A stretch of 64,000 nt of DNA from Candidatus Saccharimonadales bacterium (GCA_038236865.1 JBBRZI010000001.1:9238-73237); one strand, 5' to 3'. Counted from the stretch's first letter, positions 10,037 to 28,003 are shown. Notes: generated from the letters alone by a model not told the origin. Translations and numbers: made by a program.

Positions 10037-11434
10037 TTACTTCTTCTCGCGCCAGATTAGTTTGTAGGCCTTGAGCTTGTCAGGGATCTGATTTACATAG
10101 GGGATGAATGGAAAAGCGAGCATGGTGAGTAGCAATGAGCCAAAGATGATGCCGGCATCGCGGTCACCGTTGTCGTCACCGGAAAGCACCGTGTGGTTGA
10201 GCACACCGATTGGAACGAGCCACCAGGCTCCCGGCGTGCGCCCGGTTTCTTCGCGGACCATGCCGTACTGGTCGGTCGTGATGTTGAGCGCCGTGGCCTT
10301 TTGCTCAAGGACACCCGTATCAAACAAGAAACGGGTCGTGTAAGTTGATTCGTCAGCGTGTCCACCACCACTGTTGGCGGCGGTCAGCGACGGCTCATAC
10401 AGGCCGGCAGCGGCCATAAGGGTCAGGGACTGGACGACTGACATGATTGGACTAATCGGTGGCTTGCTGGCGCCTGGTGTCTCTTGGTCAAAGTACGCGT
10501 TGGCTGATTTTAGCTGCTCAGCTTGAACGGCGGGTGTCTGTTGGTCAAAAAGCCGTAAATCGTCTTTCGACTTTACCTGAGTGGCGTGGTACTGCGCGTA
10601 CGGAGCTGTAATGTAGACCGCGCGGGTATTGTACGTATAGGGATCGATATTGTCTAGATACACTGCGGTTTCTGAGGTGCTACCGTATTCCGCCATCAGG
10701 GTCTTGCCCATCAGAAATGAGTCTTGTTGGGCGATCGATTGGATAGTTGTCGGCTTAATGTAGGGTGAAGGCAGCACCACTGCGAGAGCCAGGATTAAGG
10801 CTATCAGCCCGCCGCCGCGTATGAACAGTTTAGTGTGGTTGGCGGGGACCGTCTTGACGGTTACGTCGCTGCGGTAGGGCCGGGCTATGCCAAGTACCCG
10901 GACGAGTAGATAGTGCAAACCCAATAAGCCGAGCAGTACGAGCGGGACCACGACGATGTGGATACCATAGATCTGTTTGTAGTTGAGTGGGTTCAGTAAC
11001 CCCCCGAGGCCACTGCCGTTATAGAAGTCAGCGCCTTGGAGTGACCGCCATTGCGATGAAAAATCACCACGCAGCGCGTAGCCAAATTCGGTCTCGGCTA
11101 GGACGACAAACAGCATCAGTACCCCGAGTAGCCAAGTCAGTCGGCGCGGTTTTTTAAATCCAGAGGTAAAGAACACGACCAGTAAGTGCAGAATAATAAA
11201 CAATACGAATGCTTGCGTAGCCCACAAGTGCACGCTACGCACGTAGCCACCAAGGCCGCTCGTCAGCCACCAGGTCGGTCCGTAGAACGTCATAATAAGG
11301 CCAGTGATAAGCAGTACGACAAACGAGATCATCGACAAAAATCCGAGCGAATAGAAAAACTTATTTCCGTAGCTCGGTACGTCCTGAATCATGCTACTTT
11401 TAAGGGCTTTGACAAGAGGGTGCGAAACGGCCAT
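10037..11434 (-). CDS. Cytochrome b N-terminal-domain-like membrane protein with large extracytoplasmic C-terminal region
   Basis: 465 aa. Helix B has HLWATQAFVLFIILH (H-x13-H) and helix D has HIVVVPLVLLGLLGLH (H-x14-H). This is the b6/Firmicute-type bis-heme spacing. Confidence 0.7.
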   Translation of the reverse strand: MAVSHPLVKALKSSMIQDVPSYGNKFFYSLGFLSMISFVVLLITGLIMTFYGPTWWLTSGLGGYVRSVHLWATQAFVLFIILHLLVVFFTSGFKKPRRLTWLLGVLMLFVVLAETEFGYALRGDFSSQWRSLQGADFYNGSGLGGLLNPLNYKQIYGIHIVVVPLVLLGLLGLHYLLVRVLGIARPYRSDVTVKTVPANHTKLFIRGGGLIALILALAVVLPSPYIKPTTIQSIAQQDSFLMGKTLMAEYGSTSETAVYLDNIDPYTYNTRAVYITAPYAQYHATQVKSKDDLRLFDQQTPAVQAEQLKSANAYFDQETPGASKPPISPIMSVVQSLTLMAAAGLYEPSLTAANSGGGHADESTYTTRFLFDTGVLEQKATALNITTDQYGMVREETGRTPGAWWLVPIGVLNHTVLSGDDNGDRDAGIIFGSLLLTMLAFPFIPYVNQIPDKLKAYKLIWREKK

Positions 11435-15533: not shown

Positions 15534-16091
15534 TTAGTCGTCGCGCTCACTGTTCGGTGAAGTTACTGGCGGCAGGGTTTGCTGCGTGACTGGCGGAGTG
15601 CCAGCAACGACGTTGAAGTCGATGTATGGCAAACCGTTATAGTTGTCGATGACGGCGACCAGTCGATAGGTGCCCGGAGAATCAAACAGTTTTGGCCATG
15701 ATGCAAAACTGCCAGTCACGCTACTGTTGGCGGGTGTCTCTATTTGGCGCTGCTCGTTCTGGCAACGCTGGGCATCGGTAGTATCAGTCACGCGCTGCCA
15801 CTTGTGGTTCACAAACTTATAGACATCCAGCGGTTCAGTCGGGCACTCATTGGTGGCGTAGATGGAAGTATTGAGATTGTTCTGGACGGTAAAAACGACC
15901 GGTTCGCCGACAATATATTGGGACTGAGAAACGCTGACGTTAATCGTGCCAACGGGTAGCGTGTGGGTTCGGAATTGATCACCAACCCAGTAAAGCAGCC
16001 CGACCATTAGTCCAAACAGGACTAGGTAGCCCATCGCCCATATCGCCCGGCGGCGCCAACGGTGTCGCCAGTAATGGAGTTCGCTATTCAT
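15534..16091 (-). CDS. Cassette A gene 4: N-terminally anchored extracellular beta-rich (Ig-like) two-Cys protein
   Basis: Start set at the ATG at 16091, which forms an ATGA overlap with the upstream stop. It has one TM (AIWAMGYLVLFGLMVGLLYWV). It is a paralog of the N-terminal half of 27062..28003 (YIVGEPVVFTV / YLVGEPVSLTI; GTYRLVAV / GSYRIALH; LPYIDFNV / LPYVDFEV). Confidence 0.6.
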   Translation of the reverse strand: MNSELHYWRHRWRRRAIWAMGYLVLFGLMVGLLYWVGDQFRTHTLPVGTINVSVSQSQYIVGEPVVFTVQNNLNTSIYATNECPTEPLDVYKFVNHKWQRVTDTTDAQRCQNEQRQIETPANSSVTGSFASWPKLFDSPGTYRLVAVIDNYNGLPYIDFNVVAGTPPVTQQTLPPVTSPNSERDD

Positions 16092-16831
16092 ATCGTTTTG
16101 GCTCTCCATAGTCGATAGACGCCAGCCCCGGCAATGCCGATCGCTACGAGCATCCAGAGCAGGCGGAATGGACCGTCGGCTAAGTCGGTGCCCAAGTAAA
16201 GCGCGTGGACAAAGACGAACAGCATGATGATGTAGGACAGCAGGTGGATGAGTTTCCAAAGATAAGGCTTTTTCTCGACCCACAGCAGCGACGTGATGAT
16301 GACGATTGTGACGAGGTAAAAAGCCAGGACTCCGAGCGCCACGTAAAACGAACCGAGCTGTACGTTCCCGATGACCAAGGGTTTATAAGGTGATAGCCAG
16401 GGCACTAAAAGCTGCCAAATCGTAAACGGCACAAAATGATCAAACAGTAAGCTTACTAAATGGGCAACGACCGCCAGCCCGAAGGCGATACCGAGCGCCC
16501 GGTGCGTCGCCCAAGCCGTGATGGGGTCAAGGAATCTAAAGCTGTAGCCAGTCACCTGGCCAATGCCCGATAAGAGCAGTATAACGAGCGCGGCGGCGGC
16601 AACCAGACCCGAACCGCGGGCGACGTACCACGGCCACGAAGTCTTGGCCCGCTCCGTTAAGCGCTGGGCGACACTGGTGCCGGCGAGTGGTTGGGCTGTC
16701 GCCGCCTTTGAACTGCCCGACTCAGCCGCGGCTGAACCGACGCTGGCGACTGTGGCTAGGCTCGCGAAGATGGCGACCGCGCAGAGGCCATACACCGCCG
16801 CTTTAATTAGTTGTTTGAATGCCATTGCCAT
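16088..16831 (-). CDS. Cassette A gene 3: ferric-reductase/NOX-type (FRD, MsrQ-like) 6-TM heme-binding subunit
   Basis: Has HRALGIAFGLAVVAH (H-x13-H) and HLLSYIIMLFVFVH (H-x12-H). The N-terminus looks like a signal peptide or anchor. Confidence 0.75.
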   Translation of the reverse strand: MAMAFKQLIKAAVYGLCAVAIFASLATVASVGSAAAESGSSKAATAQPLAGTSVAQRLTERAKTSWPWYVARGSGLVAAAALVILLLSGIGQVTGYSFRFLDPITAWATHRALGIAFGLAVVAHLVSLLFDHFVPFTIWQLLVPWLSPYKPLVIGNVQLGSFYVALGVLAFYLVTIVIITSLLWVEKKPYLWKLIHLLSYIIMLFVFVHALYLGTDLADGPFRLLWMLVAIGIAGAGVYRLWRAKTI

Positions 16832-17747
16832 ACACTTTCGTTAGTATCTTACCATGCATCTCATACTGTAGTAGGAGCGCTAAGGCCCCTAACGGCTGAA
16901 TTGAGTTCCAGGCGGTCTTCAGGCCGAGCACGATCGAAACTTTTGCCAACACATCGGCTGTCATGGCAGTGGTACCATACACCGTCGCCAAACGGACGTT
17001 GCTGACGGCTGGGAGATTGGTACGGGGGTCAATGATATGATGCCAGTCAACGCCGTTATGTTGGCCGCGATGGTTCAGCACACTTGAGCTGGCCAGTCCA
17101 AAGCTTGATCCACCGGCAGCAAGTGAGTACGGACTATCGTGTTCGAGGTTAGCCGCGTCCTGGATAGCGACGTGCCACGGCTGGGACAGTTCGTTATAGC
17201 CGGCCGCCACGATGTCGCCGCCGAGCGATAGCCAATAGCCGCCGAGCGTAGCGGGTAGCGTCTGAGCCAGCTTGTCGGCCAAGTAGCCCTTACCAATGCC
17301 GCCCATATCTAAAGCCGTGCCATAGGGTATCTCTGCCCAGTCGTCGCCAATCGTCAAATTGTCTGCTGCTACCACCGTCTTTGCGCTGTGATCATCGAGC
17401 GGGTCATGTTCGTAACCAGGCACGTGCGAATGGCGGTAGCCGGCTGCTTGGAGGGCCGGTAGTATAAACGGGTTATATAGATTACCGGTTTGCAGGCTTA
17501 ACGTGCGCGCCGCCACCAGTAAATCATGAAACTCCGCTGTTACGGGCGTCCGAATGCCGGCTGCATTGTTGAATTTGGATAGTTCGCTGGCCGGTAGAAA
17601 ACGGCTAAACTGACGTTCGAAATTGAACGTCAGTTGCCAGAGTTTTTGAAAGATTTCAGTTGTGGTAGGGCTGGTTGCATCGCTGACGAGCACAAATGTT
17701 GTTTGGCTGCCGAGCGCTATAGCCGTTTGGCTGGAGCTTTTTAACAT
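16803..17747 (-). CDS. apbE: Cassette A gene 2: FAD:protein FMN transferase (ApbE family)
   Basis: Contains FERQFSRFLPASELSKFN, GTALDMGGIGKGYLADK and HHIIDPRT motifs. No N-terminal hydrophobic signal or lipobox. Confidence 0.85.
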   Translation of the reverse strand: MLKSSSQTAIALGSQTTFVLVSDATSPTTTEIFQKLWQLTFNFERQFSRFLPASELSKFNNAAGIRTPVTAEFHDLLVAARTLSLQTGNLYNPFILPALQAAGYRHSHVPGYEHDPLDDHSAKTVVAADNLTIGDDWAEIPYGTALDMGGIGKGYLADKLAQTLPATLGGYWLSLGGDIVAAGYNELSQPWHVAIQDAANLEHDSPYSLAAGGSSFGLASSSVLNHRGQHNGVDWHHIIDPRTNLPAVSNVRLATVYGTTAMTADVLAKVSIVLGLKTAWNSIQPLGALALLLQYEMHGKILTKVYGNGIQTTN

Positions 17748-18772
17748 GGTGCGGAACCGCAGGTCCGAGGTGTCGGCGTGGTAACTGGTGTGATAGGCGT
17801 GGCCGGCGCCGTCGCTGGCGCGGCAGACGTATTGGGCGGTAAACCATTAACCAGGCTATCGAGGTTAGCTTGACGGGTGCTATTTACCTGAGCGGCGGCG
17901 GCAGCTTGCGCTGAATTGGCTTTTAGAATCGGTGGTAGGGTTTTGAACAAGTCGCTGAGCATGATGATAAAGCTGCCTAGAACCACCCCAACTGCCGCCA
18001 AGGCGTACATGTTAAACGGCCAATCGCGTAGTTCGCCAGTTTGGCGGTTAGGCCCCTGGCTAAAGGCTTCCGTGACGATTTGTTGTTTGTCGACGCCACG
18101 ATGTGCCAGCAGTGCCCTCATCCCTTTCATAAACCCGGCCGGGCCACAAATAAAAAAGGTGTGTTCCGTAAAAGCCCCCTCAGTTACAGACTGCAATAGT
18201 TCCGGACTGATTCGGCCCGTGAACACCCTTGCCTGGTTTAAGCGGTTAATCGGGCCACTGCTGACCGTGAAGATCACTTGAAAGTTGGGATTAGCTTGCT
18301 CGAGTTTGAGTAGTTCAACAGCAAAGGGCATATCGAGTTGGTTCGGGCAACTATAGACCAGGGTAATGCGTGTCTCTGACCGGGTATACGCGGCGTGCCT
18401 GATCATGCTCATAAAGGGGGTAATACCGATTCCGCCAGCCAGCAGTACAATTTGCGGTTGGTGGGTAGGTTCAATCACGAAGCCACCGAAAGGCCCGCGT
18501 ACCGATACGCCGTCGCCTGGCTTAAGCCCAACGATGGCCCGCGTGAAACGGCCGCCGATGTGCATACTAAACTGCAGCGTACCGGTTTCCTCGGGTGCAG
18601 TCACAATCGAAAAGCAGCGGGCCGGCGTTGGGCGGTATTTTCGCCTAAAGCTGAGTGCAGCGTACTGGCCGGCCTCGTGCTGAAAACTGTCTGAGGGGGT
18701 CTTGGCTTGCAGCGTGAGCAACTGTGTCGTTGGCGTCAGTTTCTCGTTGGTCAGAACAGTATAGCGGCGCAT
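17741..18772 (-). CDS. Cassette A gene 1: FNR-type FAD/NAD(P)H oxidoreductase with C-terminal TM helix and Pro/Thr-rich tail
   Basis: Contains RCFS (RxYS), GPFGGF, LLAGGIGITPFMSM and FFICGPAGFM. These are followed by a TM helix (YALAAVGVVLGSFIIMLSDLF) and the tail ...PATAPATPITPVTTPTPRTCGSAPC. Confidence 0.8.
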   Translation of the reverse strand: MRRYTVLTNEKLTPTTQLLTLQAKTPSDSFQHEAGQYAALSFRRKYRPTPARCFSIVTAPEETGTLQFSMHIGGRFTRAIVGLKPGDGVSVRGPFGGFVIEPTHQPQIVLLAGGIGITPFMSMIRHAAYTRSETRITLVYSCPNQLDMPFAVELLKLEQANPNFQVIFTVSSGPINRLNQARVFTGRISPELLQSVTEGAFTEHTFFICGPAGFMKGMRALLAHRGVDKQQIVTEAFSQGPNRQTGELRDWPFNMYALAAVGVVLGSFIIMLSDLFKTLPPILKANSAQAAAAAQVNSTRQANLDSLVNGLPPNTSAAPATAPATPITPVTTPTPRTCGSAPC

Positions 18773-18906: not shown

Positions 18907-19545
18907 TTATACTTTTTTTGCAAAGCAGTAGATCCAGTTAAGACGGCGTTTACTGTGGCCCCAGCGCTCGATCTCGTTCACGACGTAGATTGAAGTGATG
19001 GATAGTCCGCTCGCTGCAACTAGAGCGGCCGTAGATTCAATCGTTTGGTAATTAAAATACCAAACATTATCACCGCCCAATTCGGCCACGAACTGCTCTT
19101 CGCCCGAACCTTGTTTGAGTGATATGAACATACCGCCACCAGGTATCAAGACCCGCTGGAACTCGGCTAAGGCGGTCGCTATATCTGCGTCGTTCAGATG
19201 GAGCAGCGTTGCGTGACACCAGATACCGGCTATACTTTCGTCGCCAAATTTTAGTGTGCGGATATCCATGTTTTCAAAAGTTAACTCAGGGTGAAGCTGG
19301 TTGGCCCGACTGAGCAACTTTTCTGACAAATCTATGCCGACGACCTTTTGGCTGTGCTCAGCAAACTTTGCGGTATCACGACCGAAGGCACAACCAGCGT
19401 CTAACACGGGCAGATCCCCGCCCGGTAACATGGCGAGTAGGTTCGCCAGCTCTTCGCCCGGTGACACGTCGGCCGTGGCCAGTTCGTACTCGGCTGAGCT
19501 TGCATCGTATGCGGCGATTGTTTGGGTTAGATACTCACTAGCCAT
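18907..19545 (-). CDS. Class I SAM-dependent methyltransferase
   Basis: 212 aa with the VLDAGCAFGRD motif I. Confidence 0.8.
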   Translation of the reverse strand: MASEYLTQTIAAYDASSAEYELATADVSPGEELANLLAMLPGGDLPVLDAGCAFGRDTAKFAEHSQKVVGIDLSEKLLSRANQLHPELTFENMDIRTLKFGDESIAGIWCHATLLHLNDADIATALAEFQRVLIPGGGMFISLKQGSGEEQFVAELGGDNVWYFNYQTIESTAALVAASGLSITSIYVVNEIERWGHSKRRLNWIYCFAKKV

Positions 19546-19684: not shown

Positions 19685-20161
19685 TTAGCCGTTCAACGGC
19701 TTAAAGAGCGCGTCTACCAAGTGCTCGGCTTGTTTGTAAAAGCCCGGCCGCTGTTCTTTTTCGAGTTTGATGGTGGCGTGCAGTTTATGCATGGCTGGGT
19801 GGACTTCAAGCGTCGCGAGCAACTGTTTAAACTCGGTGTCGATGGCAGACAGCTCCCCATCCGTTAAGGATTCGAGACCAATAAAAGTATCACGAGCTTT
19901 TTTGTCGGCCGATATCAATTCGTTGAGCTTGAGCTGGATGGCTTTACTTTCACGATACTGGGTGTTCTGGATAGAAAACACCATGATAAAGATAATAACA
20001 TCGGTAATAACCGTGATGGTTATGAGCCAAGTGTTAGAAAAGTGATAATAGGGTCCCGTAAGGAGCCAGGCCAGCACGCCGGCAATCGACAGCATGAACG
20101 CATTGGTCGAGCTCGCTAAACGTGACACGGCAATAGAGAATTGTTGTAATGGTTTTTTCAT
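19685..20161 (-). CDS. Low-affinity iron permease (Fet4-like) family membrane protein
   Basis: 158 aa with two TM helices. NTWLITITVITDVIIFIMVFSIQNTQYRESKAIQLKLNELI resembles the bacterial low-affinity Fe permease family, recognised by eye. Confidence 0.55.
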   Translation of the reverse strand: MKKPLQQFSIAVSRLASSTNAFMLSIAGVLAWLLTGPYYHFSNTWLITITVITDVIIFIMVFSIQNTQYRESKAIQLKLNELISADKKARDTFIGLESLTDGELSAIDTEFKQLLATLEVHPAMHKLHATIKLEKEQRPGFYKQAEHLVDALFKPLNG

Positions 20162-20233: not shown

Positions 20234-20761
20234 CTAGCGCAGCACCCAGCTTTTATCCGGTTGCACGGATAAAACTGCAAAATCTACCGACAGCACGTGC
20301 CCAAAGTAAGTTTGGTCGGCGTCTTCGGGTACTGGCAGACTGGCGGCATAGACTACCTCCAAAGGTTTGCCATCTGGCTGGGCTAGTTGGAGCGTTGCCC
20401 GTCTAAGATCTATTGCCGTCAGTATGCCCTGAGCTACGATTGATTTGTCTTGTGGATTTGTCAGCTGAAGCTCGAGGCTGGCGGCGACTAAGTTTTCAGC
20501 TGAGCTGGCTCGCCAGCTCAGCTTATTCTCCTGAATGGCTATTTCTGTAGTCAGATCCTGGTAGACTTCAAAGGCGTACACCGCACTTTTAGTGCTGCGG
20601 TCGGGTAGCTCGAGACGGTGTATATGCTCGGCTAAATCATCAACTTGCGCCTGCTTGCTGGCGGCGTGGCGCAGTATTTCACCGGCGATGCTGCCGAGCC
20701 AGGCTTGCTCGCGCGTTGAGGTGGCAAGTTTGCGTTCACTGTTGGATGTACATTTACTCAT
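20234..20761 (-). CDS. Hypothetical protein
   Basis: 175-aa ORF with no recognisable motif. Confidence 0.45.
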   Translation of the reverse strand: MSKCTSNSERKLATSTREQAWLGSIAGEILRHAASKQAQVDDLAEHIHRLELPDRSTKSAVYAFEVYQDLTTEIAIQENKLSWRASSAENLVAASLELQLTNPQDKSIVAQGILTAIDLRRATLQLAQPDGKPLEVVYAASLPVPEDADQTYFGHVLSVDFAVLSVQPDKSWVLR

Positions 20762-24167: not shown

Positions 24168-25403
24168 ATGGGTAACTATAAGGTAATAGCAAGTCAAGCG
24201 ATTACCCCTTCTACACAACTTCTGACATTGCAATACGTTCAGGGTGAACGTATGGTGTTCCGGCCGGGCCAGTACGCAGCCATTAATGGCTACAAGGGGC
24301 ACCGGGCGATGCCGATTCGCTGTTTTTCATTTGTTACCTCGCCGACTGATGCGGAATTGCTCCAATTCGCGATGCGCGTCAAAGGTCACTTTACGAAAGC
24401 TGTGGCCAATTTGCCCGTCGGCGAACAGGTACATGTGCAGGGCCCCTACGGTGGCTTCGTCATGAATGGTCACGAGGAAGCCAAAGTTGTCTTTTTGGCC
24501 GGCGGAATCGGCATTACGCCGTTCATGAGTATGATCCGATTTGCCACGATTACCCATGCTGCGACTGATATGCGACTGGTCTACGCTGCCCAATCCCAGG
24601 ATGACATTCCGTTTCTAAATGAACTGAAATGGCACAGAGGAAAGAACCTTAACTTCACCCCAACATTCGTCGTCTCCAAAGGGCCACGAAACAGCTTAGA
24701 GGGCTATCAGTCGACCGAGGGCCGGATTACGAGCGAAGTACTGGAATCGATTGTTGGCGTGACATATGCCGATACAGCCACGACTTTTTATATCTGTGGT
24801 CCGCCGCCGTTTATGAATGGCATGCTACAGCTACTGCTGAGCAAAGGCATCAGCCGATCGCGTATTAATACCGAGGCCTTCAGCCAGGGCAAGAACCGCC
24901 AGACCGGTTTGGTGCGGGATTGGCCATTCAGTATGTATGGCCTGTCCGCGCTCGCTACCGCTGCGGCGCTGCTGGCGATTACGACGGGTGATTTTATCCG
25001 GACAGTACCCAGATTGACGACGACCAAACATTCACTTTCCCTCGGCGACAATGGTACGGTCAATCAGCGCCAATCCGACATTGATGCGCTCATCAACTCC
25101 TTACCGGCGAGCAGTACTAGTGGTCAGTCTTCACCAGCCGTCCAGTCCGCCGTGGCCGCGGCGACGCCGCCGGCCCCGGCCGTCAACCCGTCAACCAGCG
25201 TGGCCATACTGCCCTTTAATCATCTGACCACTCCAGTCGCGAAGGCGCCAGCTTCCGGAACGGCAACATCAACGTCGACCCCAACGTCGACCTCAACGTC
25301 GACCCCGGCACCGACCCCCACTCCCACTCCAGCACCGACCCCAAAGCCAACCCCTGCTCCGGTATGTACGACCAGTCAAAGTGGGGTAACGACGTGCAAA
25401 TAG
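24168..25403 (+). CDS. Cassette B gene 1: FNR-type FAD/NAD(P)H oxidoreductase with C-terminal TM helix and long Pro/Thr/Ser-rich tail
   Basis: Contains RCFS, GPYGGF, FLAGGIGITPFMSM and FYICGPPPFM. These are followed by a TM helix (YGLSALATAAALLAITTGDF) and a tail ending ...PTPAPVCTTSQSGVTTCK. Confidence 0.8.
   Translation: MGNYKVIASQAITPSTQLLTLQYVQGERMVFRPGQYAAINGYKGHRAMPIRCFSFVTSPTDAELLQFAMRVKGHFTKAVANLPVGEQVHVQGPYGGFVMNGHEEAKVVFLAGGIGITPFMSMIRFATITHAATDMRLVYAAQSQDDIPFLNELKWHRGKNLNFTPTFVVSKGPRNSLEGYQSTEGRITSEVLESIVGVTYADTATTFYICGPPPFMNGMLQLLLSKGISRSRINTEAFSQGKNRQTGLVRDWPFSMYGLSALATAAALLAITTGDFIRTVPRLTTTKHSLSLGDNGTVNQRQSDIDALINSLPASSTSGQSSPAVQSAVAAATPPAPAVNPSTSVAILPFNHLTTPVAKAPASGTATSTSTPTSTSTSTPAPTPTPTPAPTPKPTPAPVCTTSQSGVTTCK
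25270..25305. repeat. 3 x 12-bp in-frame tandem repeat (CAACGTCGACCY) inside the B1 tail
   Basis: caacgtcgaccc / caacgtcgacct / caacgtcgaccc, read directly. It encodes part of TSTSTPTSTSTSTP. Confidence 0.85.
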
Positions 25404-26353
25404 TTCTCCGGCACGATACCAAGCAGGCGCTTGGAGGCGACGTGACAGTTGTGCTGGCCGTCGATGCTCGACGCATTGTCGAACCGGTATTTCGGCGTAT
25501 TTGGGAACAAGTCTTTGGATTTGAACGGCAATTTAGTCGATTTTTACCGGACAGTGAGCTGTCGCAGTTCAATCGTGGCGCCGGAGTGCGCCAGGATATT
25601 TCGGAAGCATTTGCTACATTGTTGACCGCATCCCAAGCGATGAGCCAGGCTACCGACGGCCTGCATAACCCGTTCATCTTGCCAGCGGTCCAGCGGGCGG
25701 GCTATCTCGATTCGGCGGTCGCCGGCTATCGTGCTGACAAGTCAGATGATTTTCGTGATCGGGCCGTCGTTTCGGCTGATCATTTGCAGCTCGAAACCAA
25801 CCGACAGGCCACCATCCCCTATGGTACCGCCCTTGACCTGGGCGGTTGCGGCAAGGGCTACCTGGCCGATGCCATTGCCGATGAACTTGATCGAGCTGAC
25901 CTGGTGGGGTATTGGGTGTCGCTCAGTGGTGATATGGTCACCTGTGGCTTTGACGAACAGGGCCAACCGTGGGAAACAGGTATTGTTTCGGCCCGCACGC
26001 CACAAGCCGAATCACCAGCATATGTGGCTGGGAACGGTGAGCGATTGCATATCGCAACCTCCGGCACGTTCCTTCGGCCTGGGCAGGCCAAACTGCGGGG
26101 GCATCACCTGATCGATCCCCGAACCGGCCAAGCGGCGCAAACCGATATTAAGCTGGCGACCGTTATCGCGCCTTCGGCTATTTTGGCCGATGTATTGGCC
26201 TCAGCGGCGACTATCATTGGCAACCAGCAAGCGATACCGTATCTGAAGTCTCGGGGTGCGCTCGGAGCGGTTATACAGACGGCCCGACGTGATTATACAT
26301 ACGGTACGCACGTCCAGACGCGTGCATCAAGGCAGGTAGCGCATGTCAGCTAG
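25364..26353 (+). CDS. apbE: Cassette B gene 2: FAD:protein FMN transferase (ApbE family)
   Basis: Contains FERQFSRFLPDSELSQFN, GTALDLGGCGKGYLADA and HHLIDPRT. Start is ATG 25364 or GTG 25394. No signal peptide or lipobox. Confidence 0.85.
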   Translation: MYDQSKWGNDVQIVLRHDTKQALGGDVTVVLAVDARRIVEPVFRRIWEQVFGFERQFSRFLPDSELSQFNRGAGVRQDISEAFATLLTASQAMSQATDGLHNPFILPAVQRAGYLDSAVAGYRADKSDDFRDRAVVSADHLQLETNRQATIPYGTALDLGGCGKGYLADAIADELDRADLVGYWVSLSGDMVTCGFDEQGQPWETGIVSARTPQAESPAYVAGNGERLHIATSGTFLRPGQAKLRGHHLIDPRTGQAAQTDIKLATVIAPSAILADVLASAATIIGNQQAIPYLKSRGALGAVIQTARRDYTYGTHVQTRASRQVAHVS

Positions 26354-27065
26354 AGTAGTCTCGCTGGTGTTAGCCCTCGTTGTGGCCGTTGGTGTCGGTA
26401 GTGTTTTGTTGACACCCGGTCACGTATTCGCAGCTGAGAACTCCGGCAATGTAACGGTCCAGGTCGTACCTGGCGAAAAGCTCAGCAGTCGTTTGCAAGG
26501 GCAGCTCAAAGTGTCATGGCCCTGGTACGTGACCAGAGCATCGGGTATCGTGGCGGCCGCGACTCTGATGATCCTGCTCTTGTCGGGAATCGGTCAGATT
26601 ACGGGGCGGACTTTCCGCCTACTCGATCCGTTAACAGCTTGGGCGTCGCACCGCGCTCTGGGCATCGTCTTTTCAGGAGCGGTGTTTATTCATATTTCCA
26701 GCCTATTATTCGATCATTTTATTACCTTTAATGTCTGGCAACTACTGGTGCCTTGGCTGTCCGGCTACCGCTCAACTCACTGGCTGGGTTTGAACGTCGG
26801 TTCTATATATGTTGCGATGGGTATCATCGCTATGTATATGACGGCCGCAATTGTCATCACTTCGCTCGTCTGGGTAGAGAAAAAGCCGGCGTTGTGGAAG
26901 CTGGTGCACTACTTATCCTATGTAACGATATTTTTGGTGTTCGTGCACGCTTTATACATTGGGACTGATATGGCGCACGGCTTTTGGCGCTGGTTATGGG
27001 TTGGACTGAATGCTCTGATATTCTTGGCGGTGGTGGCGCGGCTATGGCGAGTGAGAACCATATGA
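26343..27065 (+). CDS. Cassette B gene 3: ferric-reductase/NOX-type 6-TM heme-binding subunit
   Basis: Has HRALGIVFSGAVFIH (H-x13-H) and HYLSYVTIFLVFVH (H-x12-H). It overlaps the end of ApbE by 11 nt. Confidence 0.75.
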   Translation: MSARVVSLVLALVVAVGVGSVLLTPGHVFAAENSGNVTVQVVPGEKLSSRLQGQLKVSWPWYVTRASGIVAAATLMILLLSGIGQITGRTFRLLDPLTAWASHRALGIVFSGAVFIHISSLLFDHFITFNVWQLLVPWLSGYRSTHWLGLNVGSIYVAMGIIAMYMTAAIVITSLVWVEKKPALWKLVHYLSYVTIFLVFVHALYIGTDMAHGFWRWLWVGLNALIFLAVVARLWRVRTI

Positions 27066-28003
27066 GAGTCAGTGAACTTATCCATGTCGAAGATCCTTGG
27101 CACAGCCGACTGCGCTGGCTGGCGGTGTTCGTCGTATTGTTCGTGGGCATCGTGTTCGCTTCGTTCGTGGCCCTCGATCGTATTCGGACCTACTCGCTGC
27201 CCACGGGCGGTATCCAGCTCAGCACGCGGTATACGCAGTACTTAGTCGGAGAACCGGTCAGCCTCACAATCAAAAACGGTTTTAATAGCCCGATATCGAT
27301 CATTACCAGCTGTCCATCCGGACCATTCGCGGTCTATCGATCGGTAAATAATAAATGGGTACGTATTCATGACACGATTTCGGCGACAAATTGCTCCGCT
27401 CTGCCGGGAACGTTGCAGCTACCGGCCGCCGGATCGTCAACGCTGTCGTTAAGCGATTGGTCGCAGCTGTTTGCGACTGCCGGCAGTTACCGGATCGCGT
27501 TACACGTCCAGTATACCAATGCCTTACCGTATGTTGATTTTGAGGTCATGACGCCACCAGCGCCTTACGTCGCTAAAGCGCCTGTACCAACCCCTGTTCA
27601 GTCGCCGCAGATAGCAAGTACTCCCAGGAGCGGCACTACGACGCAGTCAACTCCGCTACCGACCAGCCCAAGCTCGACACCGACACCGGCATCGACCCCG
27701 ACACCCTCCACGTCAAGACCGCCGCAGACAATCACGCTGTACGTCAATTCGGCTGGTAATTATTTGACCACAAACATCAGCATGTACGTTGGGGACACGC
27801 TTAAGATTATGTACCAAGCACCGTACGGTGATGAAGTAATTACCAGTTTTAGCCCGATCGCCGGTACGACCACGACCATCGGCTCGATGAAAGTGGATTC
27901 GGAATTCAGGAGTACCAGCCGCGTCTTATCGTCAGCCGGGCATTGGACCTTCAAGGCCGTTGACCATAATGGGAATAGCGGTAGCCTGGTAGTATTACCC
28001 TAG
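27062..28003 (+). CDS. Cassette B gene 4: anchored extracellular Ig-like two-Cys protein with Pro/Thr linker and extra C-terminal beta domain
   Basis: Start set at the ATG at 27062 (ATGA overlap with the upstream stop, the same geometry as cassette A). It has one TM, a paralogous beta domain, a PT-rich linker and a roughly 90-aa C-terminal domain. Confidence 0.6.
   Translation: MRVSELIHVEDPWHSRLRWLAVFVVLFVGIVFASFVALDRIRTYSLPTGGIQLSTRYTQYLVGEPVSLTIKNGFNSPISIITSCPSGPFAVYRSVNNKWVRIHDTISATNCSALPGTLQLPAAGSSTLSLSDWSQLFATAGSYRIALHVQYTNALPYVDFEVMTPPAPYVAKAPVPTPVQSPQIASTPRSGTTTQSTPLPTSPSSTPTPASTPTPSTSRPPQTITLYVNSAGNYLTTNISMYVGDTLKIMYQAPYGDEVITSFSPIAGTTTTIGSMKVDSEFRSTSRVLSSAGHWTFKAVDHNGNSGSLVVLP

Follow-up and report, generated by a model that had tools for sequence, protein, structure and literature searches.

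Small-genome Saccharibacteria (TM7) are commonly regarded as fermentative, and the question raised by this locus is whether four overlapping genes (A1 to A4, here cassette A) encode one membrane complex that passes cytosolic NAD(P)H electrons to the cell exterior. We consider this the best reading of the locus, with a probability of roughly 70%. All four ORFs in the window (the whole 64,000-nt stretch of DNA analyzed) were present on the minus strand as an earlier, sequence-only reading had described them, and the gene overlaps it had listed could be read in the sequence: ATGTTAA at 17741-17747, 29 nt between A2 and A3, and ATGA at 16088-16091. If A3 begins instead at its second ATG, a start that gives the 245-aa protein recorded in an NCBI-derived collection, its overlap with A2 shrinks to 23 nt. 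The same reading had described the surroundings as purely fermentative, which did not hold, as a cytochrome b/b6-like gene lies near the cassette. The features were as follows.

17741..18772, minus strand: A1, tail-anchored FNR-type FAD/NAD(P)H dehydrogenase subunit, 343 aa (Pfam, homology and synteny)
18479..18760, minus strand: A1 FAD-binding beta-barrel, residues 5-98, including RCFS and GPFGGF
18116..18445, minus strand: A1 NAD(P)H-binding domain, residues 110-219, including LLAGGIGITPF and ICGP
17945..18016, minus strand: A1 transmembrane helix, residues 253-276 (hydrophobic stretch in the sequence)
17744..17944, minus strand: A1 extracytosolic Pro/Thr/Ala tail, 67 residues, ending ...PRTCGSAPC
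16803..17747, minus strand: A2, ApbE-family FAD:protein FMN transferase without a signal peptide
16088..16831, minus strand: A3, six-helix ferric-reductase-domain (FRD) protein, predicted to be of the NOX-type two-heme form (PF01794, homologues and AF2 model)
16460..16504, minus strand: A3 His110-x13-His124, helix 3 equivalent, invariant
16205..16246, minus strand: A3 His196-x12-His209, helix 5 equivalent, invariant
15534..16091, minus strand: A4, N-terminal TM helix and extracytosolic Ig-like beta-sandwich (ATG at 16091; Cys83 and Cys110)
10037-11434: cytochrome b/b6-like gene, near cassette A

Analyses of A1 indicated that it is an FNR-family dehydrogenase, as had been claimed. Three Pfam families scored above their cut-offs (NAD_binding_1, 3.4e-14; FAD_binding_6, 3.6e-9; NAD_binding_6, 31 bits against a cut-off of 22.2), and the expected motifs were all in place (RCFS at residues 52-55, GPFGGF at 93-98, LLAGGIGITPF at 110-120 and ICGP at 208-211), followed by the one hydrophobic helix and the Pro/Thr-rich tail. 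A1 was homologous to dehydrogenase domains fused to FRDs, with 32% identity to that of P0191 (E 4e-39) and 37% identity to P0136 over 293 residues (E 2e-59), and the best match among solved FNR structures reached only 57 bits. By these alignments, the FRD-fused dehydrogenases are closer kin of A1 than is any FNR of known structure. Its TM helix is the topological equivalent of the first helix of A3, and in the fusions P0128, P0136 and P0142 the equivalent helix links the FNR domain directly to the FRD.

The match of A3 to Pfam Ferric_reduct (PF01794) had an E-value of 5.3e-6 and, at 26.9 bits, fell about 1 bit below the 28-bit cut-off. However, 18 of 28 A3 orthologues matched this family, the paralogue B3 (see below) scored above the cut-off, and no other Pfam family was found, which placed A3 in the FRD family. 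The search for A3 homologues (n=475) also reached FRD-FNR fusions by profile, including P0189 and P0191, both of them above the PF01794 cut-off. The two histidine pairs, H-x13-H and H-x12-H, were found as claimed, in HRALGIAFGLAVVAH (residues 110-124) and HLLSYIIMLFVFVH (residues 196-209). H110, H124, H196 and H209 were invariant in the 28 orthologues and also across 10 relatives of split, FNR-TM-FRD and FRD-FNR architecture. Arg111 directly follows His110, as in NOX. MsrQ and STEAP have Arg at the position of His110 (PMC12525009), so judged by these residues the His110-Arg111 pair is of the NOX type and not of the MsrQ/STEAP type. From this pattern we infer that A3 binds two hemes. The AF2 model of A3 was of moderate confidence (pLDDT 72, pTM 0.51) with its helices visible, and the top Foldseek match was the NOX5 membrane domain (5O0T), which was not significant (E 0.33, TM 0.31-0.35) and was followed by NOX2, STEAP1 and STEAP4.

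The assignment of A2 as an ApbE flavin transferase was confirmed by Pfam (PF02424, 1.2e-41, 143 bits) and by alignment to the solved FAD:protein FMN transferases 3PND, 4XDT and 6NXI, over its full length in the case of 3PND and 4XDT. The motifs DxGGxGKGY, ATSG, HHIIDPxT and ADxLA[ST], which we take to serve FAD/Mg binding and catalysis, were kept across the 76-member ApbE family and in B2. A2 departs from two of them, with ASSS for ATSG and ADVLAK for ADVLAS; lysine at the latter position was present in only two of the 76 sequences. In none of the 76 was there a signal peptide or N-terminal hydrophobic segment, the ApbE fold beginning no more than about 10 residues after the start codon.

The fourth gene had been described as an anchored extracellular beta protein with two cysteines, and the AF2 model of A4 agreed, with one TM helix and a beta-sandwich predicted confidently (pLDDT 85). 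Pfam gave only a weak Big_14 match, and Foldseek returned generic Ig/FnIII-like domains and no other matches. The invariant residues were G48, C83, P84, W98, C110, G140, Y142 and R143, both cysteines thus being among them.

The co-occurrence of the four genes extended well beyond this window. Together with the family placement of A3 and the constancy of its histidines, this decided the sequence-based checks set by the earlier reading in its favor, and each of its domain assignments was borne out. The order A1-A2-A3-A4 was found in 74 clusters from other genomes, nearly all Saccharibacteria, and the genes mostly overlapped. With the same order and overlaps in so many clusters, the arrangement is, as a matter of gene order, far beyond chance; the flanks were unrelated between loci. 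In addition, natural fusions of dehydrogenase and heme domains occur in both orders, FNR-TM-FRD (P0128, P0135, P0136 and P0142) and FRD-FAD-NAD (P0189, P0191, P0197 and P0206), indicating that the two parts function together.

A second, paralogous cassette was identified in the same window at 24168-28003.

24168..25403, plus strand: B1, A1 paralogue (42% identity) whose full tail ends in PVCTTSQSGVTTCK
25364..26353, plus strand: B2, A2 paralogue (ApbE 4e-45, canonical motifs); the true start is likely the GTG at 25394
26343..27065, plus strand: B3, A3 paralogue, 57% identity (PF01794 31.5 bits, above the cut-off)
27062..28003, plus strand: B4, A4 paralogue, extended at its C-terminus by an extra beta domain of about 90 residues

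No family match was obtained for the extra domain of B4. Compared with cassette B, which looks like a complete copy, cassette A looks like a reduced one, based on its short tail with a degenerate motif, its ApbE altered at two motif positions and its short A4. In the closest relative (L006), the ApbE has been lost from cassette A, which counts against the proposed complex. The window most likely holds two copies of a conserved four-gene electron-export module of Saccharibacteria that is built unlike the known versions.

Neither cassette contained an FMN_bind or DUF2271-type domain with [S/T]GA[S/T] by Pfam (A1-A4, B1-B4), and the sole recurrent flavinylation-like motif was at the C-terminus of the A1 tail. 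Among 76 A1 homologues, 36 ended in CTT[ST]xSGVTTCx and 15 in CQTTPSGRCI; a C-terminal Cys pair was present in 54, and about 20 of the 22 lacking it had a P[RK]T[TR]VS-type end. Within the last nine residues, [ST]G[AV][ST] occurred in 28 of 74 tails, where shuffling predicts 0.29. The canonical [S/T]GA[S/T] was missing from about half of the tails (CQTTPSGRCI and PRTTVS types) and from the window's own A1 tail (TCGSAPC), whose end is, judged by its residues, a degenerate version of the motif conserved at this C-terminus. In every context with a free TM-anchored tail (the 74 clusters, L090 and L094/L095), ApbE was encoded directly downstream; the L090 tail ends PAPRTAVS, and in L094/L095 a separate gene encodes the tail as a 100-aa protein with PQPRTILS at its end. 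Conversely, wherever ApbE occurred, such a membrane-anchored tail preceded it. ApbE was absent from the four FNR-TM-FRD fusion contexts, which have no free tail. The tail, with its terminal [S/T]-x-x-[S/T] encoded just upstream of ApbE, is the best candidate flavinylation site. As the ApbEs are without signal peptides and the tail must be outside, FMN attachment would have to precede export, for which we know of no precedent. Cytosolic ApbEs exist, a 7-residue motif is enough for flavinylation, and replacement of Ala by Val retains about 50% of it (PMC12052999).

We propose that A1, anchored to the membrane by its own C-terminal helix, would bind its FAD and NAD(P)H on the cytosolic side. From there electrons would reach an inner heme b of A3, ligated by His110/His196, and then an outer heme b, ligated by His124/His209. 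The path would be that of NADPH oxidases and yeast ferric reductases, with the halves on separate, translationally coupled polypeptides. A4, as a single-pass protein, may expose its Ig-like domain at the cell exterior, either to cap the complex structurally or to bind the acceptor. A2 would attach FMN to one component, probably at the [S/T]-x-x-[S/T] that ends the Pro/Thr tail of the dehydrogenase, and a tail flavinylated in this way would hold a tethered extracellular flavin at the end of the electron path. We consider the complex most likely to serve either in reducing extracellular Fe(III) for uptake or in unloading surplus reducing equivalents onto Fe(III) or O2. A hint at iron came from a gene for a Fet4-type iron permease 900 nt upstream on the same strand and from an Nramp gene after the cassette in L005, metal-transporter neighbors being found at only two of about 80 loci.

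Several other functions were weighed against electron export of this kind. One possibility is that O2 is reduced at the outer heme of A3 itself, in the manner of SpNOX and eukaryotic NOX, with ApbE and the tail as accessories, and the superoxide might serve in signalling, attack on a host bacterium or indirect iron reduction. The two-heme histidine pattern and the His-Arg pair are NOX-type, NOX5 is the best, though weak, structural match of A3, and O2 reduction is possible for bacterial FRD-FNR proteins (PMC5676040). Nevertheless, we consider such an oxidase unlikely because NOX requires no ApbE, tethered tail or A4, yet all of these are conserved with the cassette, and because the invariant outer-face residues of A3 include two acidic ones (D131 and D216); the authors of the SpNOX study themselves warn that the physiological acceptor may be something other than O2 (PMC5676040). 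The least probable of the readings is that A3 feeds a secreted repair or reductase partner, as MsrQ feeds MsrP, with A4 as that partner or its dock. Several databases do label the homologues "methionine sulfoxide reductase heme-binding subunit" or YedZ, and the partner of MsrQ is likewise a separate FNR-type reductase, Fre. However, A3 has His at the position of MsrQ Arg77, which indicates a two-heme form and not a heme and FMN form, no MsrP or other molybdoenzyme gene was present in cassettes A and B or recurred in the flanks, and A4, a plain Ig-like sandwich, matched no redox enzyme.

The absence of signal peptides from the ApbEs also suits an enzyme acting at the cytosolic face, where its target might be the T-G-x-T of the A3 helix 2-3 loop or the FNR domain; a covalently bound FMN would then connect FAD with the inner heme, and the tail would have another role. 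A [TS]-G-x-[TS] motif was present on this loop in 77 of 83 A3 homologues, and MsrQ and STEAP hold flavin on that face. We believe this to be very unlikely, given that the motif also occurs in three of the four ApbE-less FNR-TM-FRD fusions (P0128, P0136 and P0142) and is missing from P0189, which adjoins ApbE. Furthermore, its central residue is Tyr or His and not Ala, and the inner site would be taken by the heme ligands His110 and His196. At least as hard to credit is an export of electrons to thiols, the Cys-x7-9-Cys loop that ends the A1 tail together with the A4 pair Cys83/Cys110, for disulfide reduction or isomerization in an organism without DsbD. While the C-terminal Cys pairs of most A1 homologues and the two invariant cysteines of A4 are consistent with it, 22 of the 76 tails and the stand-alone tail protein of L094 have no cysteine, transfer from heme to a disulfide is without precedent in the family, and ApbE would be left unexplained.

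Electron export by a flavinylated complex of this general kind is not a new idea. ApbE-linked PF01794 "MsrQ-like" clusters are known from Meheust et al. 2021, eLife (PMC8238504), ApbE-associated transmembrane electron-transfer systems also from Huang et al. 2024, mSystems (PMC11334425), and MsrQ with Fre is a published two-component NOX-like system (PMC5676040). What is new here is a predicted NOX-type two-heme FRD, a separate tail-anchored dehydrogenase, and the lack of both FMN_bind and an ApbE signal peptide. The cassette falls within the operational definition of the Meheust-type systems (a PF01794 gene in an apbE-containing cluster) and, like them, combines a predicted two-heme PF01794 protein with neighboring genes for ApbE and an NAD-binding FNR module; common to both is also a proposed NAD(P)H-driven electron export, possibly for iron reduction. 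However, those systems are mostly actinobacterial, whereas the cassette hosts are Saccharibacteria and other CPR bacteria, which as a group are strikingly poor in extracytosolic flavinylation (PMC8238504). Meheust-type systems contain an FMN_bind-domain protein, their NAD-binding domain is usually fused to the FRD C-terminus, and their ApbE and FMN-binding genes were selected for a signal peptide or lipobox. In the cassette, by comparison, the FNR is a separate tail-anchored subunit and there is an Ig-like fourth subunit.

With NOX/DUOX, yeast FRE, SpNOX and csNOX5 the cassette shares the six-helix FRD, the H-x13-H and H-x12-H spacings, the inner-site His-Arg pair and an FNR-family FAD and NAD(P)H dehydrogenase, that of A1 being 32% identical to its counterpart in a bacterial FRD-FAD-NAD protein. 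NOX/FRE proteins, however, are single polypeptides with the dehydrogenase C-terminal of the FRD and have no ApbE partner. The ORFs and overlaps bear out the earlier claim that the two halves are separate genes here, with apbE between them, and the closest fused relatives have the dehydrogenase at the N-terminus, the reverse of the NOX/FRE order. Separate polypeptides for the FRD protein and the FNR-type reductase are also found in MsrQ (YedZ) and Fre of E. coli, where fre is not adjacent to msrQ. In that system, Fre is soluble, in contrast to the tail-anchored A1; MsrQ carries one heme and a non-covalent FMN, with Arg77 for the inner His, and its acceptor is the molybdoenzyme MsrP. The Klebsiella pneumoniae fumarate reductase system and the trypanosomatid ApbE-fumarate reductase fusions likewise have ApbE without a signal peptide, but the substrates of cytosolic ApbEs are soluble cytosolic reductases with FMN_bind, none of which was present in or near the cassette. 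Listeria (FmnB/PplA/Ndh2/EetAB) is, like the cassette hosts, a monoderm fermenter, and sends NADH electrons out through an ApbE-flavinylated surface component, with long linkers that hold the flavin away from the membrane, as we propose for the cassette. It does so through a pool of quinones and without a heme protein; its ApbE (FmnB) is secreted, and its FMN_bind domains are in PplA. In the cassette, the membrane step would instead fall to a two-heme FRD, and a short C-terminal motif is the proposed carrier of the flavin.

Cassette A comprised four minus-strand open reading frames, and a second set of the same four genes, cassette B (B1-B4), was found on the plus strand.

17741-18772, minus strand: A1, dehydrogenase of the ferredoxin-NADP-reductase (FNR) family, 343 aa
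16803-17747, minus strand: A2, ApbE, 314 aa
16088-16831, minus strand: A3, putative ferric-reductase-domain (FRD) heme protein, 247 aa
15534-16091, minus strand: A4, Ig-like protein, 185 aa counted from the ATG at 16091
24168-28003, plus strand: cassette B, the same four genes

The sequence-only reading had taken cassette A for a split NOX/FRE-like enzyme with an ApbE, and our analyses bore this out with respect to domains, conservation and synteny. The motifs it had quoted were all found at the residues it gave, and its junctions were confirmed on reading the sequence: ATGTTAA at 17741-17747, a 29-nt overlap of A2 and A3 (23 nt if A3 starts at the second ATG, as in the 245-aa protein of an NCBI-derived collection), and ATGA at 16088-16091. 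Pfam searches assigned A1 to the FNR family (NAD_binding_1, 3.4e-14; FAD_binding_6, 3.6e-9; NAD_binding_6, 31 bits against a cut-off of 22.2 bits) and A2 to ApbE (1.2e-41), the latter aligning over its full length with the solved FAD:protein FMN transferases 3PND, 4XDT and 6NXI. A scan for promoters and terminators found nothing beyond the shuffled expectation.

The match of A3 to Ferric_reduct (PF01794; 5.3e-6, 26.9 bits) was one bit below the Pfam cut-off; that of B3 (31.5 bits) was above it. PF01794 was matched by 18 of 28 A3 orthologues and was the sole Pfam family matched by any, and the four histidines previously proposed as a bis-heme set (His110, His124, His196 and His209) were invariant in the alignment of these orthologues. 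The A3 model was of moderate confidence (pLDDT 72) and had the expected set of long helices. In Foldseek its top PDB matches were coherent in family, with the cyanobacterial NOX5 membrane domain first and NOX2, STEAP1 and STEAP4 behind it, but none was significant (E 0.33), and a profile search of A3 against PDB sequences likewise gave no significant match (STEAP4 at E 6.8). Since the structure matches were not significant, the placement of A3 in the FRD family rests on sequence evidence. For A4, a weak match to the Ig-like Big_14 was the only one in Pfam, and the confident AlphaFold2 model (pLDDT 85) consisted of one N-terminal membrane helix and a beta-sandwich whose sole PDB matches were generic Ig/FnIII-like domains.

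The best matches of A3 were in Candidatus Saccharibacteria (TM7, candidate phyla radiation, CPR); of the candidates that were scored, 475 clusters reached E ≤ 0.001. Scanning a single genome for each species yielded 80 loci, almost all of them labelled Saccharibacteria or Saccharimonadales, with a few labelled Parcubacteria, Paceibacterota, Nomurabacteria and Dormibacterota. When these loci were searched with the four window proteins, the expected co-occurrence was found, the order A1-A2-A3-A4 being present in 74 clusters, most with overlapping stop and start codons; the loci departing from it were largely cut by contig ends. No flanking genes were conserved across the loci. The commonest flanking family, named ABC-transporter-like from its sequence motifs, occurred at 13 loci, and every other family at four or fewer. 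The recurring order between unconserved flanks indicated that the four genes are a self-contained module.

Fused relatives of A3 indicated that the dehydrogenase and the heme protein belong to one system. Profile searching found 1732 relatives of A3 among 1.84 billion representative proteins. Among the closest (E 1e-61 to 1e-45) were four single-chain proteins, P0128, P0135, P0136 and P0142 (loci L086, L087, L092 and L093), in which an N-terminal FNR domain is followed by one membrane helix and the FRD, the reverse of the order in every characterised NOX/FRE enzyme; the helix after the FNR domain stands in for the first helix of A3. More distant relatives (P0189, P0191, P0197 and P0206) had the NOX order, FRD-FAD-NAD. 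A1 shared 37% identity with P0136 over 293 residues that take in the helix, and 32% with the P0191 dehydrogenase domain (E 4e-39); among solved members of the FNR family, no match exceeded 57 bits. The four histidines, candidate heme ligands, were invariant across the split form and both fused forms. Together, the two kinds of fusion fix the topology of A1 and A3: the FNR domain is predicted to be cytosolic and the A1 helix to run from inside to outside, which would place the Pro/Thr tail of A1 outside, with the His110/His196 pair of A3 predicted near the cytosol and the His124/His209 pair near the outside. As a separate observation, P0146, P0160, P0161, P0189, P0193 and P0197 carried bacterial TSP3 (thrombospondin type 3) repeats in an extracytosolic N-terminal extension before the FRD (e.g., L089, 835-1704).

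Some A3 homologues are named ‘MsrQ’ or ‘YedZ’ in databases. MsrQ and STEAP have a flavin in the inner site and an Arg in place of the first inner His (Arg77 in MsrQ), whereas NOX and DUOX have His at this position, followed by Arg (PMC12525009). A3 has His110-Arg111 and by this criterion is predicted to be a two-heme NOX-type FRD. The pairing of MsrQ with Fre has itself been termed a two-component arrangement mimicking NOX (PMC5676040). The cassette is of a kind already known, the ApbE-linked FRD clusters. Meheust et al. described 1797 ‘MsrQ-like’ flavinylation clusters, mostly actinobacterial, often with an NAD-binding domain fused to the FRD C-terminus, and proposed NAD(P)H as the donor and, for some clusters, iron reduction (PMC8238504); the CPR was strikingly under-represented in their survey (PMC8238504). 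The cassette differs from these clusters in five respects: its predicted two-heme NOX-type FRD, its operon-encoded, tail-anchored dehydrogenase, the lack of an FMN_bind domain, its signal-less ApbE, and its Ig-like fourth subunit. Among the texts open to our literature search we found no paper on this cassette in Saccharibacteria or the CPR, and the supplement of Meheust et al. may already list it; no paper found combined Saccharibacteria with ApbE, and the sole one on Saccharibacteria and ferric reductase was unrelated.

The family motifs were conserved among the 76 cassette ApbE homologues. Signal peptides, lipoboxes and membrane segments were absent from every one of the 76, with the ApbE fold starting within about 10 residues of the start codon. 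No FMN_bind-type domain was found in any cassette protein. A search for a conserved [S/T]-G-[A/V]-[S/T] pointed to two candidate sites, one of them a loop of A3 (see below) and the other the extreme C-terminus of the A1 tail. These tails are variable linkers rich in Pro, Thr, Ser and Ala, about 60-170 residues long, with ends conserved in three forms.

Conserved ends of the A1 tails
Type I: CTT[ST]xSGVTTCx, 36 of 76
Type II: CQTTPSGRCI, 15 of 76
Type III: P[RK]T[TR]VS-type, no cysteine, about 20 of the 22 lacking the Cys pair

Of 74 tails, 28 had the strict motif within their final nine residues, compared with 0.29 expected from composition-preserving shuffles, in a set of related sequences whose counts are not independent. 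Common to all three types was [S/T]-x-x-[S/T] at the spacing of the flavinylation motif. According to published work, the seven-residue D-x-x-[S/T]-G-A-[S/T] suffices for flavinylation, changing the Asp to Ala has a minor effect, and Ala to Val or Gly to Ala leaves about half (PMC12052999).

In relatives with rearranged genes, the tail behaved as a separable unit tied to ApbE. At L090, a distant relative whose FRD is 35% identical, an FNR-helix-tail protein ending PAPRTAVS precedes a signal-less ApbE and the FRD. At L094 and L095 the FRD and the dehydrogenase form a single chain in NOX order, and directly upstream of a signal-less ApbE lies a stand-alone 100-residue protein in which a single N-terminal helix leads into a Gln/Pro-rich linker with PQPRTILS at its end; the gene after the FRD codes for an A4 homologue of 173 residues.

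L094, 2764-5793 (GCA_016214005.1, JACRPK010000018.1): rearranged module of the 100-aa TM-tail protein, ApbE, FRD-FAD-NAD and A4 homologue

On the P0189 contig, similarly, a small gene precedes ApbE and the FRD fusion comes after it. The FNR-helix-FRD fusions, which have no free tail, had neither ApbE nor A4 nearby in four contexts. A membrane-anchored tail and ApbE thus co-occurred, adjacent to one another, however the other parts were distributed, with a small sample of four tail-less contexts for comparison, and this co-occurrence makes the A1-type tail the best candidate for the ApbE substrate. The functional parts (dehydrogenase, heme domain, tail, ApbE and Ig-like subunit) were divided among polypeptides in four or more arrangements, which makes the family a useful natural experiment in how NOX-type enzymes were put together.

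Other explanations for the site, and for the conservation of the tail end, fared less well. A T-G-x-T in a cytosolic loop of A3, present in 77 of 83 sequences, was rejected: three of the four fusions without ApbE also have it (P0128, P0136 and P0142), and it was missing from the ApbE-linked P0189. An ‘ESGSS’ that A3 has in its first outer loop was conserved in no orthologue and was likewise discarded. A4 was rejected as a new FMN-binding domain, having no conserved [S/T]G[A/V][S/T] and a generic Ig/FnIII-like fold. Fusion of the A1 tail to ApbE by frameshift or readthrough, which would export the ApbE, was rejected on the junction offsets, which fell in all three frame classes (including -40, -10, -7, -4, -1, +1, +3, +9 and +11). 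Conservation of the A1 C-terminus merely through an overlapping ApbE start was also rejected, as the A1-frame peptide looked, on reading the sequences, much better conserved than the ApbE-frame one. At 25364-25403 and homologous junctions with type I and type II tails, an ATG in the apbE frame coincides in part with the codon for the first Cys in the C-terminal loop of A1/B1 (apparent overlap 40 or 34 nt); the 11-12 extra apbE codons looked poorly conserved and are probably not translated. An extracellular tail and an apparently cytosolic ApbE leave three possibilities: flavinylation before the tail is exported, an unrecognised route for ApbE, or another target. Cytosolic ApbEs do exist (PMC12052999).

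These data support an electron-carrying complex reaching the outer face, for which the predicted cofactors and direction would give a path starting at NAD(P)H and running by way of FAD and two hemes. The flavinylation site and the terminal acceptor, like the cofactors and the direction of flow, are inferences. We speculate, at a probability of roughly one in four, that the dehydrogenase subunit bears a covalent FMN at the tip of a 60-170-residue extracellular Pro/Thr tether and delivers outer-heme electrons through the cell wall. Attachment, by the dedicated signal-less ApbE at the divergent [S/T]-x-x-[S/T] of the C-terminus, would take place while the tail is still cytosolic, with export following; once outside, the flavin would be reduced by the outer heme and pass its electrons on across the cell wall, to Fe(III), O2 or the surface of the host cell. 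In some relatives the tether would be borne by the stand-alone 100-residue membrane protein.

Saccharibacteria and other CPR bacteria are usually viewed as relying on fermentation alone, lacking an electron-transport chain and being nearly devoid of flavinylation outside the cytosol. If the tether exists, these supposedly fermentation-only bacteria could discharge electrons from NAD(P)H by a route that needs heme and flavin, and cytosolic modification of an export-bound protein would be a new mode of ApbE action; how an ApbE without a signal peptide comes to be paired with a substrate that seems to be exported is a concrete, testable question for flavinylation research. If real, a conserved, often duplicated conduit from NAD(P)H to the outside would depend on heme b and flavins, which to our knowledge these bacteria are usually unable to make, and models of CPR redox balance, iron supply and host dependence would change.

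Two neighbourhood hints pointed to iron as the acceptor. A Fet4-type low-affinity iron permease (PF04120, 2e-33; 19685-20161, minus strand) lies upstream of cassette A on the same strand, separated from it by a SAM methyltransferase (18907-19545), and an Nramp gene follows the cassette at L005. The permease linkage was found in the window and in none of the other 80 loci, and metal-transporter neighbours were not recurrent across loci. Oxygen may instead be reduced, as in NOX. The phosphoketolase and acetate kinase genes were confirmed to adjoin cassette A, and the recurrence of phosphoketolase near the cassette at four other loci fits a possible role in disposal of reducing equivalents.

The proteins of cassettes A and B were 42, 44, 57 and 38% identical (genes 1-4 in order). 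In a related genome, JBDTSH01, a single contig carries the two cassettes (L006 and L034), and the duplication is therefore older than the split of the two lineages. Cassette A looks like a reduced copy and cassette B the more complete one. The B1 tail is full-length, ending CTTSQSGVTTCK, and the ApbE motifs of B2 are canonical. The A1 tail in cassette A is short and ends TCGSAPC, not the family motif; A2 is off at two family motifs (ASSS for ATSG, ADVLAK for ADVLAS), with Lys at the latter position in two of 76 ApbE sequences. In the closest relative, cassette A (L006, 3903-6298 of JBDTSH010000016.1) has lost apbE, its A3 following 45 nt after A1, but retains the CTTSQSGVTTCR end of A1, and the L034 cassette on the same contig retains apbE. 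The window cassette A is the reverse of L006, its apbE being retained but altered and its tail motif gone. A4 also lacks the domain of roughly 90 residues that B4 and many A4 homologues have in addition at the C-terminus, behind a Pro/Thr linker (…YxxGDxLxIxY…DHxGNxGxLxV); this domain had no Pfam match and looked beta-rich by eye.

27680-28000, plus strand: extra C-terminal domain of B4
L004, 7240-7637: the same domain in an A4 homologue
L005, 7280-7679: the same domain in an A4 homologue

Two other genes of the window were observed near the cassettes. Adjoining the acetate kinase and phosphoketolase genes, 10037-11434 (minus strand) codes for a protein of 465 aa that has N-terminal domains of cytochrome b/b6 (PF13631, 4.9e-19; PF00033, 4.8e-12). 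This is a further b-type cytochrome in a genome presumed to be fermentative, and the adjacent genes included neither a Rieske nor a cytochrome c partner. Between cassettes A and B, 20234-20761 (minus strand) codes for a 175-aa protein with no family match, and the related genome encodes a homologue of it (67% identity) some 2 kb downstream of its cassette B (L034, 8668-9195).
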